A stretch of DNA of 44,532 nt from Escherichia phage vB_EcoP-CC1, in sequence record OX457022. One strand, 5' to 3'. Both the position numbers and the translations under genes were made by a program. This document shows, piece after piece, positions 22,509-31,273 of the stretch. How positions within the stretch are numbered: position 1 is the first letter of the stretch; every line of letters begins with the position of its first letter. Under the pieces are notes generated by a model. It ran no database searches and was not told the DNA's origin. It saw nothing but the letters and a program-made list of their open reading frames with translations.

Positions 22509-22702
22509 TGATAAACTCCGAACTGGTAGATAATGGTGTGAAGCTGGCGCCACCTGCATTAGTCTCAGGTGGGTACTTCCTCGGTATCAGTTGGGACAAT
22601 TTGGTACTGATAGCAACATTCATTTATACAGTGTTGCAGATTGGCGATTGGTTCTATACTAAATATACAATATGGAGGAATAAGCATGAGCGTGCACAAT
22701 AA
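22508..22702 (+). CDS. Holin (T7 gp17.5-like)
   Basis: It is 64 aa with a hydrophobic core and basic tail. YTVLQIGDW compares with T7 gp17.5 YTVVQIG (recalled). It lies between the fibre and terminase genes. Confidence 0.6.
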   Translation: MINSELVDNGVKLAPPALVSGGYFLGISWDNLVLIATFIYTVLQIGDWFYTKYTIWRNKHERAQ

Positions 22703-22985
22703 ACATGCAGCCACAGAGGATGAAGTAGGCATCCTTCATGGCGCTATTACGAAGATGTTTAATAAGAAAGCACAGGCTATACTGGACACTATAGAAGAAG
22801 ACCCTGATTCTGCTATGCACTTAGTGTCAGGTAAGGATATTGGAGCCATGTGTAAGTGGGTTTTAGATAATGGCATTACTGCAACCCCTGCTGCACAGCA
22901 GGAAGAATCTAAGTTGTCTAAGCGTCTCAAGGCTATCCGAGAGGCGTCCAGTGGTAAGATCATTCAGTTTACTAAGGAGGATTAA
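22686..22985 (+). CDS. Terminase small subunit (gp18-position)
   Basis: GGAGGA precedes the ATG at 22686, directly upstream of the large terminase. Confidence 0.55.
   Translation: MSVHNKHAATEDEVGILHGAITKMFNKKAQAILDTIEEDPDSAMHLVSGKDIGAMCKWVLDNGITATPAAQQEESKLSKRLKAIREASSGKIIQFTKED
22777..22799 (+). promoter_or_regulatory. Intragenic near-consensus phage promoter (CTATACTGGACACTATAGAAGAA)
   Basis: Positions -13 to +5 are identical to the consensus, and it lies upstream of the large terminase. Confidence 0.5.
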
Positions 22986-24880
22986 TGGCTAAGGCAAGAG
23001 AATCACAAGCGGAGGCTCTTGCCAGATGGGAGATGCTACACGAGTTACAGCAGACCTTCCCTTATACGGCAGAAGGTTTGCTTCTCTTTGCTGATACAGT
23101 TATTCATAATTTAATTGCAGGTAGTCCTCATCTGATTCGTATGCAGGCAGACATCTTGAAGTTCCTATTCTATGGGCACAAGTATCGCCTCATCGAAGCG
23201 CCCCGTGGTATCGCTAAAACTACGCTGGCAGCAATCTATACGGTGTTCCGTATCATTCATGAGCCTCATAAGCGTATCATGGTTGTATCCCAAAACGCCA
23301 AGCGAGCAGAGGAAATTGCAGGTTGGGTGGTCAAAATCTTCCGAGGATTGGACTTCCTTGAGTTTATGCTACCGGATATATATGCTGGCGACCGTGCATC
23401 CGTCAAGGCATTTGAGATTCACTACACGTTACGCGGCAGCGATAAGTCGCCTTCTGTATCCTGTTACTCTATCGAAGCAGGAATGCAGGGTGCTCGTGCT
23501 GACATCATTCTAGCAGATGACGTTGAATCTATGCAGAATGCGCGTACAGCAGCAGGTCGTGCATTACTTGAGGAACTGACAAAGGAGTTTGAATCTATCA
23601 ACCAGTTTGGTGATATCATCTACCTTGGTACACCTCAGAACGTCAACTCAATCTATAATAACCTTCCGGCTCGTGGTTATTCCGTGCGCATCTGGACTGC
23701 TCGCTATCCTTCGGTAGAACAGGAGCAATGCTATGGTGATTTCCTTGCACCTATGATTGTGCAAGATATGAAGGATAACCCAGCATTGCGAACAGGCTAT
23801 GGTCTGGATGGCAACAGCGGCGCTCCTTGTGCGCCTGAAATGTACGATGATGATGTCCTGATTGAGAAGGAAATCTCACAGGGTGCTGCTAAATTCCAGC
23901 TTCAGTTCATGCTTAACACTCGCATGATGGATGCTGACAGATACCCATTGCGCCTAAACAATCTAATCTTCACCTCATTTGGTACAGAGGAAGTCCCTGT
24001 GATGCCTACGTGGAGTAATGATTCCATTAACATCATTGGGGATGCACCTAAGTATGGCAACAAGCCTACAGATTTCATGTATCGACCTGTGGCACGTCCA
24101 TACGAATGGGGTGCTGTTACACGCAAGATTATGTATATTGACCCCGCTGGTGGCGGTAAGAACGGAGATGAGACTGGTGTAGCCATCGTATTCCTGCACG
24201 GCACATTCATTTATGTGTATCAGTGCTTTGGTGTACCGGGCGGATACCGAGAATCTTCCCTGAATCGCATTGTGCAGGCCGCAAAGCAGGCAGGGGTTAA
24301 AGAGGTATTCATAGAGAAAAACTTTGGTCATGGCGCGTTTGAGGCGGTAATTAAGCCATACTTTGAACGAGAGTGGCCTGTGACACTTGAAGAGGATTAC
24401 GCAACTGGTCAGAAAGAACTCCGCATCATTGAGACGCTAGAGCCATTGATGACCGCGCATAGGCTCATCTTCAATGCGGAAATGGTTAAGTCAGATTTCG
24501 CTTCAGTACAGAACTACCCGCTTGAACTGCGGATGTCTTATAGTCTGTTCCATCAAATGTCGAACATCACTATTGAGAAGAACAGCCTTAGGCATGATGA
24601 CCGCTTAGACGCTCTGTATGGCGCTGTGCGTCAATTAACTTCCCAGATAGACTATGACGAGGTTACTCGAATTAATCGCCTCAGAGCGCAGGAGATGCGC
24701 GATTATATACAGGCGATGAATACACCTAAACTTCGTCGGGCTATGCTGTACGGCGATTATGGTGATGAGCGAAGAACAACCAACACCTCCTTAGCGATGC
24801 AGCAGCGGGTTTACGGTCAGAATTGGAGGAGCCGCTCTGGGTCTAGAAATACACTTTCCTCAAGGATTTCAAGGATTTAG
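22985..24880 (+). CDS. Terminase large subunit (gp19-like)
   Basis: It is 631 aa with a Walker A-like EAPRGIAKTT and ILADDVE, plus a strong SD. Confidence 0.9.
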   Translation: MAKARESQAEALARWEMLHELQQTFPYTAEGLLLFADTVIHNLIAGSPHLIRMQADILKFLFYGHKYRLIEAPRGIAKTTLAAIYTVFRIIHEPHKRIMVVSQNAKRAEEIAGWVVKIFRGLDFLEFMLPDIYAGDRASVKAFEIHYTLRGSDKSPSVSCYSIEAGMQGARADIILADDVESMQNARTAAGRALLEELTKEFESINQFGDIIYLGTPQNVNSIYNNLPARGYSVRIWTARYPSVEQEQCYGDFLAPMIVQDMKDNPALRTGYGLDGNSGAPCAPEMYDDDVLIEKEISQGAAKFQLQFMLNTRMMDADRYPLRLNNLIFTSFGTEEVPVMPTWSNDSINIIGDAPKYGNKPTDFMYRPVARPYEWGAVTRKIMYIDPAGGGKNGDETGVAIVFLHGTFIYVYQCFGVPGGYRESSLNRIVQAAKQAGVKEVFIEKNFGHGAFEAVIKPYFEREWPVTLEEDYATGQKELRIIETLEPLMTAHRLIFNAEMVKSDFASVQNYPLELRMSYSLFHQMSNITIEKNSLRHDDRLDALYGAVRQLTSQIDYDEVTRINRLRAQEMRDYIQAMNTPKLRRAMLYGDYGDERRTTNTSLAMQQRVYGQNWRSRSGSRNTLSSRISRI

Positions 24881-27233: not shown

Positions 27234-27256
27234 ATTTACTGGACACTATAGAAGGA
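27234..27256 (+). promoter_or_regulatory. Phage RNAP promoter (ATTTACTGGACACTATAGAAGGA)
   Basis: It is a consensus match upstream of the second fibre gene. Confidence 0.85.
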
Positions 27257-28870: not shown

Positions 28871-28937
28871 CGCAACTTCCCTTGAAGCAATCTAGCGATA
28901 CCTTCAAGGGAATAGCTCAAGAAAGCAAGGAGGTTTG

Positions 28938-29087
28938 ATGCCGTTGATCAAATCAGTTAAGCAAAGTGCTGTACACCAGAACACAGAAGAACTTATTCAA
29001 TCAGGACGTGACCCTAAGCAGGCCTATGCCATTGCCAAGGATGTACAGCGTCGTGCCATGAAGAAACCTTCTGCATCTTCTGCGTAA
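28938..29087 (+). CDS. Hypothetical 49-aa basic protein
   Basis: AAGGAGG precedes the ATG. The sequence is MPLIKSVKQSAVHQNTEELIQSGRDPKQAYAIAKDVQRRAMKKPSASSA. Confidence 0.5.
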   Translation: MPLIKSVKQSAVHQNTEELIQSGRDPKQAYAIAKDVQRRAMKKPSASSA

Positions 29088-29221
29088 TCAGGTTAATATC
29101 TTAGTGTACACAAGGGCAAACCTATGATAGCTCACAGCACACCTCTGAGTGCCGCTCTGGATTCTATGAATTGTTCCCTGACTATCTAGGTTTGCTCTTA
29201 GTATATTACAAAGGAGGTCAC

Positions 29222-29377
29222 ATGATTTGGATCCACACGTATGGTGTAGGGTCATTCAAGAAGAATGTACTCAGGAAGATCCATGAGTCCGAGGAATCAG
29301 CCTTAGCCAGCCAGAAGGTACTTGGTGGTACTATCCAGTGCTACATGAAGAAGCCACAAGGTTTTGACTTAGTGTAA
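29222..29377 (+). CDS. Hypothetical 51-aa protein (last gene before the genome end)
   Basis: AAAGGAGG precedes the ATG at 29222. The longer track ORF beginning at 29171 lacks an SD. Confidence 0.45.
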   Translation: MIWIHTYGVGSFKKNVLRKIHESEESALASQKVLGGTIQCYMKKPQGFDLV

Positions 29378-29435
29378 CCAAAGGTGGTCACAAAGTAACC
29401 AAAGTCAAAATTTTGATGTAGGCGTGTGTCAGCCC

Positions 29436-29724
29436 TCTCGCCCTCGCCCTCGCCGGGTTGTCCCCATAGGGTGGCCTGAGGGAATCCGTCTTCGACGGGC
29501 AGGGCTGATGTACTCCTTGTACTAGCTTAGTAGTACACAAGGGCTGGCCTTTTGTTTTGCCATGTACTAGCAAGGTGGAACGCTGGAGAGCGCCTAGGAC
29601 GGCCTAGGGATGGGCTTAGTGGTGGACAAGGTGATTGCCTTAGTGAAGCCTCTTAGTGCATTCCTGAGGCCATTCAGGGCGTTTATGAGATATTGACAGG
29701 GTGTGCGTGGGTGGGCTATCTGTT
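29436..29724 (+). other. Presumptive terminal-repeat / concatemer-junction region
   Basis: TCTCGCCCTCGCCCTCGCC begins at 29436, CCCCATAGGG lies at 29462-29471 and CTATCTGTT ends at 29724. These parallel T7 left-end features (TCTC..., CCCCCATAGGGGG, CCCTATCTGTT; recalled). The boundaries are not determinable from a collapsed assembly. Confidence 0.45.
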
Positions 29725-29794
29725 CGTTTCGTTCACTCCGCTTGCGCTACGTTCACTCGCTCACGTGTACCTTAGGTTGTTCCTTGATGGATAG

Positions 29795-29897
29795 CTTAGG
29801 TTAGCCTTAGTGGACTACCTTAGTTATAACCTTAGTGCTTATCTTAGTAATAGCTTAGTAATGTACCTTAGTAAGTCTTAGTGTCTTCTCTTAGTGA
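29795..29897 (+). repeat. Dense array of 9 CTTAG(T/G) short repeats spaced 10-13 bp
   Basis: Read directly. About 10 more copies are scattered across 29526-30216 and one lies at 30835. It is analogous to the T7 SRL/SRR arrays next to the terminal repeat. Confidence 0.8.
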
Positions 29898-30042
29898 TTG
29901 CACATGCAAGCATGTAAGATGCCATTAGGTCGCGGTCGGTAGACCGCTAAAGAAAGAGAATAGTAATAAGATGCAGTAGGAGGAACACCAGAAACCTAGC
30001 CAACCTAACCTATCCTAGCTCTGTATCTATTGCTTTTCCTTA

Positions 30043-30058
30043 GTCTAACATGTGAGAC
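30043..30058. repeat. Palindrome family copy, 1 mismatch (GTCTAACATGTGAGAC)
   Basis: Read directly. It is intergenic, 35 bp upstream of the -35 element of the first early promoter. Confidence 0.7.
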
Positions 30059-30092
30059 AACCTAGATTTATCTTAGTGATGATAGCTTAGTG

Positions 30093-30121
30093 TTGACAAG
30101 GCCATCTCAATGTAATACTAT
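30093..30121 (+). promoter_or_regulatory. Host sigma70 early promoter (TTGACA-17 bp-TACTAT)
   Basis: It has a consensus -35 element, 17-bp spacing and a good -10 element, upstream of the first early ORFs. Confidence 0.65.
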
Positions 30122-30192
30122 TCATCACGTAGGCAGCACTGAGGTGCTTAGTAGCCAGCTAGTAAGGCATACGAAGAGACTAGTGCCTGCAT

Positions 30193-30209
30193 TGCTCTTT
30201 AACAATTTG
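30193..30209 (+). promoter_or_regulatory. rrn-type boxA (TGCTCTTTAACAATTTG)
   Basis: It matches the E. coli rrn leader boxA TGCTCTTTAACAA. A hairpin at 30132-30190 precedes it. Confidence 0.65.
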
Positions 30210-30263
30210 CTTAGTGTAACCTATGTATGCCGTGGTTAATTACTTATTGAATGAGGGTTAACT

Positions 30264-30359
30264 ATGAATTACGAAGAAATGTATGAAGACTACTTCAATT
30301 CACTTGATGAAGGAGAAGAAGCATTGTCCTTTGCTGAGTTTATGGAGGCTTTATCATGA
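30264..30359 (+). CDS. Early 31-aa highly acidic peptide
   Basis: GAGGG precedes the ATG. The sequence is MNYEEMYEDYFNSLDEGEEALSFAEFMEALS. It is coupled to the next ORF by an ATGA overlap. Confidence 0.45.
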   Translation: MNYEEMYEDYFNSLDEGEEALSFAEFMEALS

Positions 30360-30532
30360 TTCTGAATAACCGTGAACTATCCATTCTCTTCACCTTGTTG
30401 TGCTATATGATTCGTAACAACGAATTACTTACAGACGATGAACTGGCACTATATCACCGTTTCCTTAACGAAGGTTGGGTCGATACAGTTAACCAGAAAC
30501 GTGACTTGATGAAGGAGTTAAGCAATGTTTAA
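30356..30532 (+). CDS. Early 58-aa hypothetical protein
   Basis: GGAGG precedes the ATG, and the ORF overlaps both of its neighbours. Confidence 0.5.
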   Translation: MILNNRELSILFTLLCYMIRNNELLTDDELALYHRFLNEGWVDTVNQKRDLMKELSNV

Positions 30533-30734
30533 ACATGAGATTTACACTGATTGCAGTAAATCGGCTAAAGCTATCTGCGATTTGTACAAGGCAGAATGCC
30601 AGACGTACAACCTCAACGATGGTACTGAGATGTTTTATCTTCAGTTTGAAAGCAAGTTATCTCACAAACGAGTGATTAACAGCCTGAATCAACACTCCTT
30701 GGAGTGGGAAGAAGTAAATAGCAATAAAGTTTAA
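30525..30734 (+). CDS. Early 69-aa hypothetical protein
   Basis: AAGGAG precedes the ATG, and the ORF is listed in the track. Confidence 0.55.
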   Translation: MFKHEIYTDCSKSAKAICDLYKAECQTYNLNDGTEMFYLQFESKLSHKRVINSLNQHSLEWEEVNSNKV

Positions 30735-30742
30735 ATTAACTA

Positions 30743-30771
30743 TTGACAGCCACGGCATACAAGGTTACATT
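30743..30771 (+). promoter_or_regulatory. Host sigma70 early promoter (TTGACA-17 bp-TACATT)
   Basis: It has a consensus -35 element and 17-bp spacing, upstream of ocr. Confidence 0.65.
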
Positions 30772-30803
30772 AAGCATCAAGACGGCGACGTCTTTAAACA
30801 TCC

Positions 30804-30820
30804 CGCTCTTTAACAATTTG
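30804..30820 (+). promoter_or_regulatory. boxA (CGCTCTTTAACAATTTG)
   Basis: It has the same 16-nt core as 30194-30209. T7 carries CGCTCTTTAACAATCTGG ahead of gene 0.3 (recalled). A GACG-GCGA-CGTC hairpin precedes it at 30781-30792. Confidence 0.65.
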
Positions 30821-30913
30821 GATGGTAGCTTCTTAGTCTGGATAGGTTAAACCTAGGGGATTCTCTTGAGTCTCCTATAATGTAACCTAACTAACTAAAT
30901 GAGGATTAATAAC

Positions 30914-31273
30914 ATGACTATGTCTAATATGACTTACTCTCAGGTTTACAACACCGCTCATGCTGCATTAGTTGAACGTATCTGGAATGATGCTATTGAT
31001 TGTATCGATAACGCACATGATGCAATCCATGAGGTAGCGGACAGTGCTGTACCAATCTATTATGCTGACATCTTCTCAGTGATGGCGAGTGAAGGTATTG
31101 ATCACTTCTTCGAAGACTCCGGCCTGATGCCAGATACTAAGGATGTAACGGTCGTACTACAAGCCCGTATTTATGAACAACTCACCATTGATTTATGGGA
31201 ACGTGTTCAAGATATGATTGTTGCGTACACCAATTACGCTGAGGATTCAGAAGAAGAAGAAGAGGAAGAATAA
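30914..31273 (+). CDS. ocr: Ocr (T7 gp0.3) homologue: DNA mimic, type I R-M/BREX inhibitor
   Basis: MTMSNMTY...[61 protein letters not shown] is near-identical to recalled T7 Ocr, and it has an acidic tail. Confidence 0.9.

Follow-up and report, generated by a model that had tools for sequence, protein, structure and literature searches.

The one-strand CTTAGT repeats at the genome ends of Escherichia phage vB_EcoP-CC1, a very probable SP6-group counterpart of the short-repeat arrays of phage T7

Short direct copies of the hexamer CTTAGT lie on one strand in and around the direct terminal repeat (TR) of Escherichia phage vB_EcoP-CC1 (sequence record OX457022; the whole stretch of DNA analysed, 44,532 nucleotides or 44.5 kb, is called the window here). 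In the SP6/K1-5 group of phages (Molineuxvirinae), these copies very probably correspond to SRL and SRR, the short-repeat arrays on either side of the TR of phage T7. It is also highly likely that they form a cis-acting, non-coding part of the concatemer junction, which comprises sparse copies, a TR that itself contains copies, the polymerase signal ATCTGTT and a dense array (Table 1).

The hexamers were counted on both strands as CTTAGK, that is CTTAG(T/G). Between 29526 and 30215 there are 19 CTTAGK (17 CTTAGT and 2 CTTAGG), all on the + strand, and 0 on the - strand. The original prediction had placed about 20 copies at 29526-30216, and the coordinates it listed were correct within 1-2 bp; four further + strand CTTAGT had been overlooked, three ahead of the TR (29100, 29197, 29368) and one at 30832. 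Over 29000-30900 the + strand carries 23 CTTAGK (21 CTTAGT, 2 CTTAGG), against one CTTAGG (29013) and zero CTTAGT on the - strand. Set against expectation over the whole window, CTTAGT is enriched at the array: the 826-bp leader (29438-30263; the first open reading frame (ORF) begins at 30264) contains 17 copies, where 0.27 would be expected from the frequency in the remainder of the genome (Poisson P = 5e-25), and 5000 first-order Markov simulations of the leader region averaged 0.69 copies and never exceeded 6. The best 700-bp stretch on the - strand has <=3 copies, compared with 18 here on the + strand, and for CTTAGK on both strands of the whole window 84 copies were found versus 49.7 +/- 7.3 in shuffles. 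Chance or base composition as the origin of the copies was ruled out by these enrichment tests. The hexamer had also been described as rare elsewhere, which holds roughly: outside 29000-30900 there are 14 CTTAGT on the + and 22 on the - strand, about what composition predicts, so the motif is neither avoided nor favoured there.

The dense array begins 53 bp past the end of the TR. Its spacings from 29771 onward are 24, 11, 13, 12, 12, 11, 13, 10 and 13 bp, and the nine regular copies (29795-29895) fit a period of 11.87 bp with residuals <=1 bp. This agrees with the nine-copy block of 10-13 bp spacing that had been proposed, and the block grows to ten copies if 29771 is included. Relative to the 10.5-bp helix a period of 11.9 bp is out of phase, with a rotation of ~47 degrees per unit. 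The GC content of the leader (46%) equals that of the genome. A coding role of the array region was ruled out, as its ORFs reach only ~33 aa and stop codons occur in all three frames. A structured RNA was likewise ruled out for the array (RNA fold z-score +0.8), and an Rfam search of 28900-31000 returned no match, including for the double hairpin described below. A host genomic counterpart was excluded, no similar array having been found in 5,426 E. coli genomes. A long-range inverted repeat (29789-29805/29999-30015), the partner of which is lost in SP6, was treated as a by-product of the repeat content.

The comparison with relatives was based on 20 left genome ends from SP6-group phages of E. 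coli, Salmonella, Klebsiella, Proteus and Raoultella and from uncultivated viral contigs. The array is conserved: all 20 left ends have a same-strand array of 6-10 copies, which starts 50-90 bp past the position of TATCTGTT, the polymerase signal at the right TR boundary, and in these ends copies are also found within the TR and around promoters. Over the 20 genomes the spacing is 10-14 bp (mode 12, mean 11.9). In an alignment of 17 genomes the mean pairwise identity was 0.84 in hexamer columns versus 0.55 in spacer columns (Mann-Whitney P = 1.4e-9). The consensus of 94 copies from seven lineages reads tACCTTAGTg; nearly all of the information resides in CTTAGT, the flanks are weakly biased, and position 6 of the hexamer is T in 84 of the 94 copies. 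Selection thus maintains the hexamer together with its orientation and spacing, while the sequence between the copies is free of it, and this is the signature of a repeated recognition site. The sparser sets recur too. Three + strand copies precede the TR in the right ends of K1-5 and SP6, and the circular assemblies PST_H2, K44PH129C1 and Koku have 2-4 copies before the TR. Inside the TR there are three copies in K1-5, three in K1E and one in SP6, and promoter-zone copies stand at equivalent offsets from TATCTGTT in K1-5, SP6, K1E, PST_H2 and the Proteus phages.

The position of the copies relative to the genome ends was determined by homology. The 1-kb stretch around the array is 100% identical to the record of Escherichia phage vB_EcoP-CC2, a Vectrevirus, and is matched by 114 further records of the same group; Vectrevirus belongs to the Molineuxvirinae, the SP6/K1-5 group of T7-like podoviruses. 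The Vectrevirus identity, 13 SP6-type promoters, a small terminase of family PF11123 and the direct TR place the phage in the T7 supergroup. The window was assembled as a permuted circle in which the TR is present as a single collapsed copy. The finished records of K1-5, R4596, EEc4, VEc3 and Raoultella phage P3a start at window 29436-29438, and the TR of K1-5 (234 bp, identical at both record ends) ends at GTGGGCTA, which corresponds to window 29711-29718. Because the record starts of relatives and the end of the K1-5 TR coincide there, 29436-29718 was taken to be a single TR copy, with the genome's left end probably at ~29436-29438 and the right TR boundary probably after 29718. A repeat_region is annotated at 1-283 (283 bp) in P3a, and the records of AAPEc6 and EC120 start at the equivalent of window 29719. 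The TR presumed to lie beside the copies is thus supported by homology to the ends of relatives. By the same homology, the DNA to the left of the TR would be the right end of the genome and the DNA to its right the left end.

The short-repeat arrays SRL and SRR, consisting of CCTAAAG beside the TR of T7 and T3, were reportedly described by Dunn and Studier in 1983. The TR of T7 (160 bp) has three CCTAAAG inside; SRL comprises ~12 copies or variants with a 13-bp period from nucleotide 175, and SRR ~5 copies before the right TR, all on the top strand (strand count of the repeat, 11 versus 0). The arrays of T3 resemble those of T7 but are sparser. The likeness to the T7 arrays that had been suggested for the CTTAGT copies was borne out in detail, with TR-internal, SRL-like and SRR-like sets. 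As in T7, same-strand, non-coding repeats lie inside the TR, densely to its right and more sparsely to its left, with a period of 12-13 bp; as in T7 and T3, an ATCTGTT at the TR boundary comes first, then the array, then the early host promoters (here 30093). The extended consensus shares ACCT-A with that of T7 (tACCTTAGTg here, aCCTAAAG in T7), and both TRs carry a CCCCATAGGG box. The copies at 29771..29895 are very probably the counterpart of SRL and those at 29100..29373 that of SRR.

The differences from T7 concern sequence and layout. The core is CTTAGT here and CTAAAG in T7, and CCTAAAG is not the repeated unit, which makes the array a counterpart of the T7 arrays and not a member of the same sequence family. 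It had been pointed out correctly that the unit differs and that all copies are on a single strand; the latter does not distinguish the two phages, since the T7 repeats are confined to one strand as well. The array starts 50-90 bp past the TR in the SP6 group but 15 bp past it in T7, and has ~10 copies here versus ~12 in T7. It lacks a following phage promoter such as phiOL of T7 and is instead followed by a conserved double hairpin. The right-end set has only three copies, which are interleaved with two small right-end ORFs. A further T7-like phage, Salmonella phage Vi06 (NC_015271), has four CTTAGT and six CCTAAAG in one left array (100-320), and this mixed array links the two motif types.

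The boundary of the TR is marked by a signal for the phage RNA polymerase. ATCTGTT, a class II pause/termination signal, has its natural site at the T7 concatemer junction (bioRxiv 10.1101/2021.01.11.426313; 10.64898/2026.02.12.705533). In the window, ATCTGTT at 29718-24 is the only + strand copy, while six are on the - strand; it is also found at the TR boundary of T7 (161), T3 (232), SP6 (174) and K1-5 (234), and the exact TATCTGTT is present in 18 of 20 relatives. Between TATCTGTT and the ten-copy array there are 46 bp of unique sequence. All 13 SP6-type phage promoters of the window point rightward and none is located between 27242 and 31388; on concatemers, therefore, late transcripts from 27242 would cross the right-end copies and the TR up to the pause site. 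As a separate observation, a perfect -35 hexamer (TTGACA) is present at 29693, near the right edge of the TR, with 18 bp separating it from the TATCTG within the junction signal, and is kept in K1-5 and SP6. The T7 junction signal has been reported to double as an E. coli promoter (10.64898/2026.02.12.705533). If such a dual role holds here, the host polymerase would transcribe the array early.

Table 1. Coordinates of the junction features in the window and of the gene for the candidate reader of the repeats (for repeat sets, first positions of the copies are given).
Feature	Position	Strand	Remarks
Small terminase gene, candidate reader of the repeats	22686..22985	+	PHROG 891, PF11123; large terminase gene at 22985-24880
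Three sparse CTTAGT (29100, 29197, 29368)	29100..29373	+	Last 340 bp of unique DNA before the TR
Direct TR, collapsed copy	29436..29718	+	Boundaries by homology to relatives
Four CTTAGT inside the TR (29526, 29615, 29639, 29652)	29526..29657	+	Hexamer count
TATCTGTT, class II pause/termination signal of T7-type RNA polymerase (concatemer-junction (CJ) signal)	29717..29724	+	Straddles the right TR boundary
Dense array, ten CTTAG(T/G) (29771, 29795, 29806, 29819, 29831, 29843, 29854, 29867, 29877, 29890)	29771..29895	+	Spacers 4-7 bp, variable; non-coding
Double hairpin, ACATGC-AA-GCATGT, then GCGGTC-GGTA-GACCGC	29902..29947	+	Directly 3' of the array, conserved
Five dispersed CTTAGT (30039, 30072, 30086, 30147, 30210)	30039..30215	+	Around the main early host promoter
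Strong sigma-70-type site, main early host promoter	30093-30121	+	10/12 positions match

To explain this arrangement we tentatively favour putative multi-copy, head-to-tail sites bound by a phage-encoded protein of maturation or packaging, for which the small terminase is the best candidate; this seems to us quite plausible, if somewhat short of probable. Observed directly are the position, strand, period and enrichment of the repeats, the selective preservation of the hexamer and its agreement with phage lineage instead of host, whereas the binding of the repeats by a protein, the identity of that protein and a purpose in junction recognition are what we infer. While concatemers replicate, the phage RNA polymerase of late transcription would proceed rightward across the right-end copies and the TR and would pause at ATCTGTT on the TR boundary. 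An oligomer seated on the same-sense repeats at both sides of the TR could mark the junction, and it may help to place the terminase for two staggered cuts and for the TR duplication by which one junction gives two genome ends. The 10-14 bp spacing fits one protein footprint per unit, and the single orientation over the whole junction fits an element that acts on the junction as a unit and one-way transcription to the pause.

The distribution of the motif restricts the choice of a reader. CTTAGT is common to SP6-group phages of five host genera, whereas the E. coli phages T7 and T3 have CCTAAAG; the motif follows the phage lineage and not the host, which speaks for a phage-encoded reader or an intrinsic DNA property. 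The phage promoters of the window read ATTTACTGGACAC and those of SP6 read ATTTAGGTGACAC. That CTTAGT is the same in SP6 and in this phage despite the different upstream halves of their promoters argues against the promoter-recognition loop of the polymerase as the reader. For the same reason, and as none of the 13 promoters falls between 27242 and 31388, an origin of the repeats as phage promoter fragments was ruled out. The core protein that usually recognises sequence where concatemers are cut is the small terminase. The small terminase of the window was assigned to PHROG 891 ('terminase small subunit', 5e-26) and to Pfam PF11123 (2.4e-16), the same family as T7 gp18, with which it shares 31% identity over 52 aa, half its length. 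Strongly diverged small terminases of one family would fit a changed recognition motif, although this is no proof of it.

Arrays of short repeats by cut sites are also known from the lambda cosB R sites, the P1 pac hexamers and the SPP1 pacL/pacR boxes, which are read by small terminases. The CTTAGT copies resemble them in that several copies of a short motif stand beside a site at which terminase cuts concatemers. In lambda, P1 and SPP1, however, binding has been demonstrated and the repeats are fewer (3-7) and often lie near the cut on both sides, whereas the copies here reach ~500 bp past the cut. Viral contigs were additionally scanned for three spaced CTTAGT. Most of what this gave were tandem or coding repeats of no relation, and the informative cases were limited to the SP6-like contigs, phage Vi06 and the arrays of L028 and L103. 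In the latter two, which are unrelated uncultivated phages, five same-strand CTTAGTCCC each are present (L028 5160-5233; L103 100-190, reverse strand). They lie ~330 bp upstream of an ORF with DUF5681, which is followed by the large terminase gene, overlapping it, and then by the portal gene. A CTTAGT-type array thus stands where a pac site might, and we count it in favour of packaging-protein sites.

Several points weigh against sites for the packaging machinery. We know of no binding or genetic support for the T7 SRL and SRR. Deletion work on plasmid packaging in T7 (Chung and Hinkle in 1990) and in T3 (Hashimoto and Fujisawa in 1992) is said to have located the essential pac signals in the TR and the right-end side and not in SRL. 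Past the TR, five copies are scattered over the early-promoter zone, as far as ~490 bp from it, and another is at 30832; such spread-out copies weaken the proposal because a pure cut-site marker needs none there. The 11.9-bp period would spiral the sites around the helix, and a simple wrapping around a flat ring is not supported. The two-motif array of Vi06 suits a reader that tolerates variation, or a DNA property of a purely structural kind. In T7-like Yersinia phages the stretch from the left TR to the first phage promoter holds 11 to 34 repeats (PMC5923468), and copy number is therefore loosely constrained.

The last two points also favour an array that has no specific reader and is structural or passive. 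Its repeats might provide periodic flexible TA steps, all-frame stops that keep ribosomes off junction read-through, or a slippage repeat serving as a spacer between TR and promoter. The repeat-derived TAG, TAA and TGA stops in all three frames suit this explanation, as does the loose C-T-A/T-A-G flavour that the motifs of different lineages share. We consider it improbable: the hexamer is near letter-perfect, including position 6, between spacers that are 55% identical, which exceeds what stop codons or TA steps need, the strict single orientation and the 10-14-bp spacing are conserved, and the fold of the array RNA is not unusual.

The main rival to binding sites for a packaging protein takes up the copies that extend beyond the cut. 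The repeats could act at the leading end, on the first ~800 bp to enter the cell and the last to be packaged, either as handles or stop marks by which ejected internal-core proteins draw the leading DNA inward until the host RNA polymerase takes over, or as contacts holding the last-packaged end in the portal and core channel. The motif indeed marks the whole 826-bp non-coding leader on one strand, including the five conserved copies around the early promoter, and CTTAAAG copies occur in and around the A1 promoter of T7. The size of the leader is near the ~850 bp that T7 reportedly internalises without transcription (work of the Molineux laboratory), and T7 DNA is said to enter left end first (Pao and Speyer in 1973). 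Copies are also found before the right TR, however, which enters last, the amount of T7 DNA entering is reportedly independent of sequence, and we know of no core protein that reads sequence. On balance a leading-end role appears unlikely, and it ranks ahead of the passive or structural explanation, which is followed by the replication-related and host-factor ones.

The double hairpin directly 3' of the array, with a DNA fold z-score of -2.9, may bear on replication. Two alleles of hairpin 1 are known, and their stems compensate fully: CC2, K1-5, P3a and ACG-C91 have ACATGC/GCATGT, whereas SP6, K1E and the Klebsiella phages have ATAGCT/AGCTAT. Hairpin 2 is almost invariant among 17 relatives. 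Such a conserved structure after the array could point to an element of replication or concatemer formation, in which the repeats would be origin iterons, primase start sites or barriers confining resection to the TR, which would let the ends anneal into concatemers. The arrays flank both TR copies on the inside, a place where resection or the final primer of the lagging strand would matter, and SRL of T7 adjoins a secondary origin at the phiOL promoter. The nearest phage promoters here are at 27242 and 31388, which leaves no T7-style promoter origin at the left end, and these phages are not known to have a Rep-type initiator. Resection barriers would be expected in mirrored orientation, but the repeats point the same way at both ends, and the hexamer lacks GTC, the textbook recognition core of the T7 primase. 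Like the iterons of plasmid and phage origins, the copies are regularly spaced direct repeats; iterons, however, measure 17-22 bp and lie by AT-rich DNA with DnaA boxes and are bound by a Rep initiator, whereas the core here is only 6 bp in DNA of genome-like GC content, and no DnaA boxes were seen in the sequence of the array region. Origin iterons were rejected on unit length and on DnaA/AT context, and we regard a replication element as a whole as very unlikely. As an observation apart, five viral contigs have iterons of CTTAGTCTTAGAT that immediately adjoin DnaA boxes (TTATCCACA, two or three each); these look like a true replication origin, are unrelated to the array and have a quite different appearance.

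The copies around the main early promoter were examined for a relation to the host. One CTTAGT adjoins the -35 hexamer (CTTAGTGTTGACA) in the window, and the same is seen in K1-5, SP6 and UAB_Phi78; in K1-5 another copy falls within the promoter spacer. This could indicate sites for a host DNA-binding protein, or a modulation of the early promoters by host RNA polymerase through the copies. Against it, the motif differs between SP6- and T7-group phages of E. coli and is the same over five host genera, the E. coli genomes contain no similar array, and the dense array is located upstream of the promoter zone and not inside it; a host factor thus has little chance of being the reader. In the same region CTCTTTAACAAT occurs at 30195-30206 and 30806-30817, upstream of early ORFs and each time followed by CTTAGT within 25 bp. 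The same 12-mer stands ahead of gene 0.3 of T7, at the RNase III site R0.3, and the two boxes are likely RNase III processing sites.

Some further observations concern the TR and its annotation. Three tandem CTCGCC units (29437-29454) lie at the genome's extreme left end, and a perfect palindrome, TCAAAATTTTGA (29405-29416), 20 bp left of the TR, is kept in K1-5. The CCCCATAGGG box is found at 29462-29471, ~25 bp into the TR, and at nucleotides 27-36 of the T7 TR; since it occurs in both, part of the TR is conserved across subfamilies. In MZ234019, MZ234020, MZ234032 and other GenBank relatives up to five 'hypothetical proteins' are annotated over the non-coding region of TR, array and promoter, and these gene calls are almost certainly spurious. 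The TATCTGTT boundary together with the array provides landmarks for opening assemblies of SP6-group phages correctly.

Lineage-specific same-strand motifs, in and after the TR, were also found in the first 1 kb of other Autographiviridae: CCATAGG in gh-1 (7:0), CCTGG in phiKMV (strand split 17:2), C(C/T)TAGTG in KP34 and GGCTAGGCTA within 32-bp repeats in Era103. Variant junction signals were noted in gh-1 and Era103 (ATCTGTC/ATCTGTA and ATCTAT). To our knowledge, short repeats flanking the TR have been described only for T7 and T3. The literature searched contained no account of the SP6-group array and gave no function for the T7 arrays; the 2004 genome papers on SP6 and K1-5 (Dobbins; Scholl) may mention the array.

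The array is an SP6-group instance of a family-wide feature and is ordinary for a well-sampled phage group; taken alone it is a routine feature of the phage family, and its value lies in comparison. In the SP6 group the T7 arrays have a second version, distinct in sequence but with the same architecture and clear selection on the hexamer, which makes swap, scramble and binding experiments cleanly interpretable. More speculatively, and with some doubt, each lineage of the T7 supergroup may have its own same-strand 'address' motif that co-evolves with a rapidly diverging small terminase. CCTAAAG in T7/T3, CTTAGT in the SP6 group, CCATAGG in gh-1 and the CCTGG type in phiKMV could then be arrays that set packaging specificity, a proposal we hold equally loosely. 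If it is true, co-infecting relatives would be barred from packaging each other's concatemers, and a function would be assigned to the 40-year-old puzzle of SRL and SRR.

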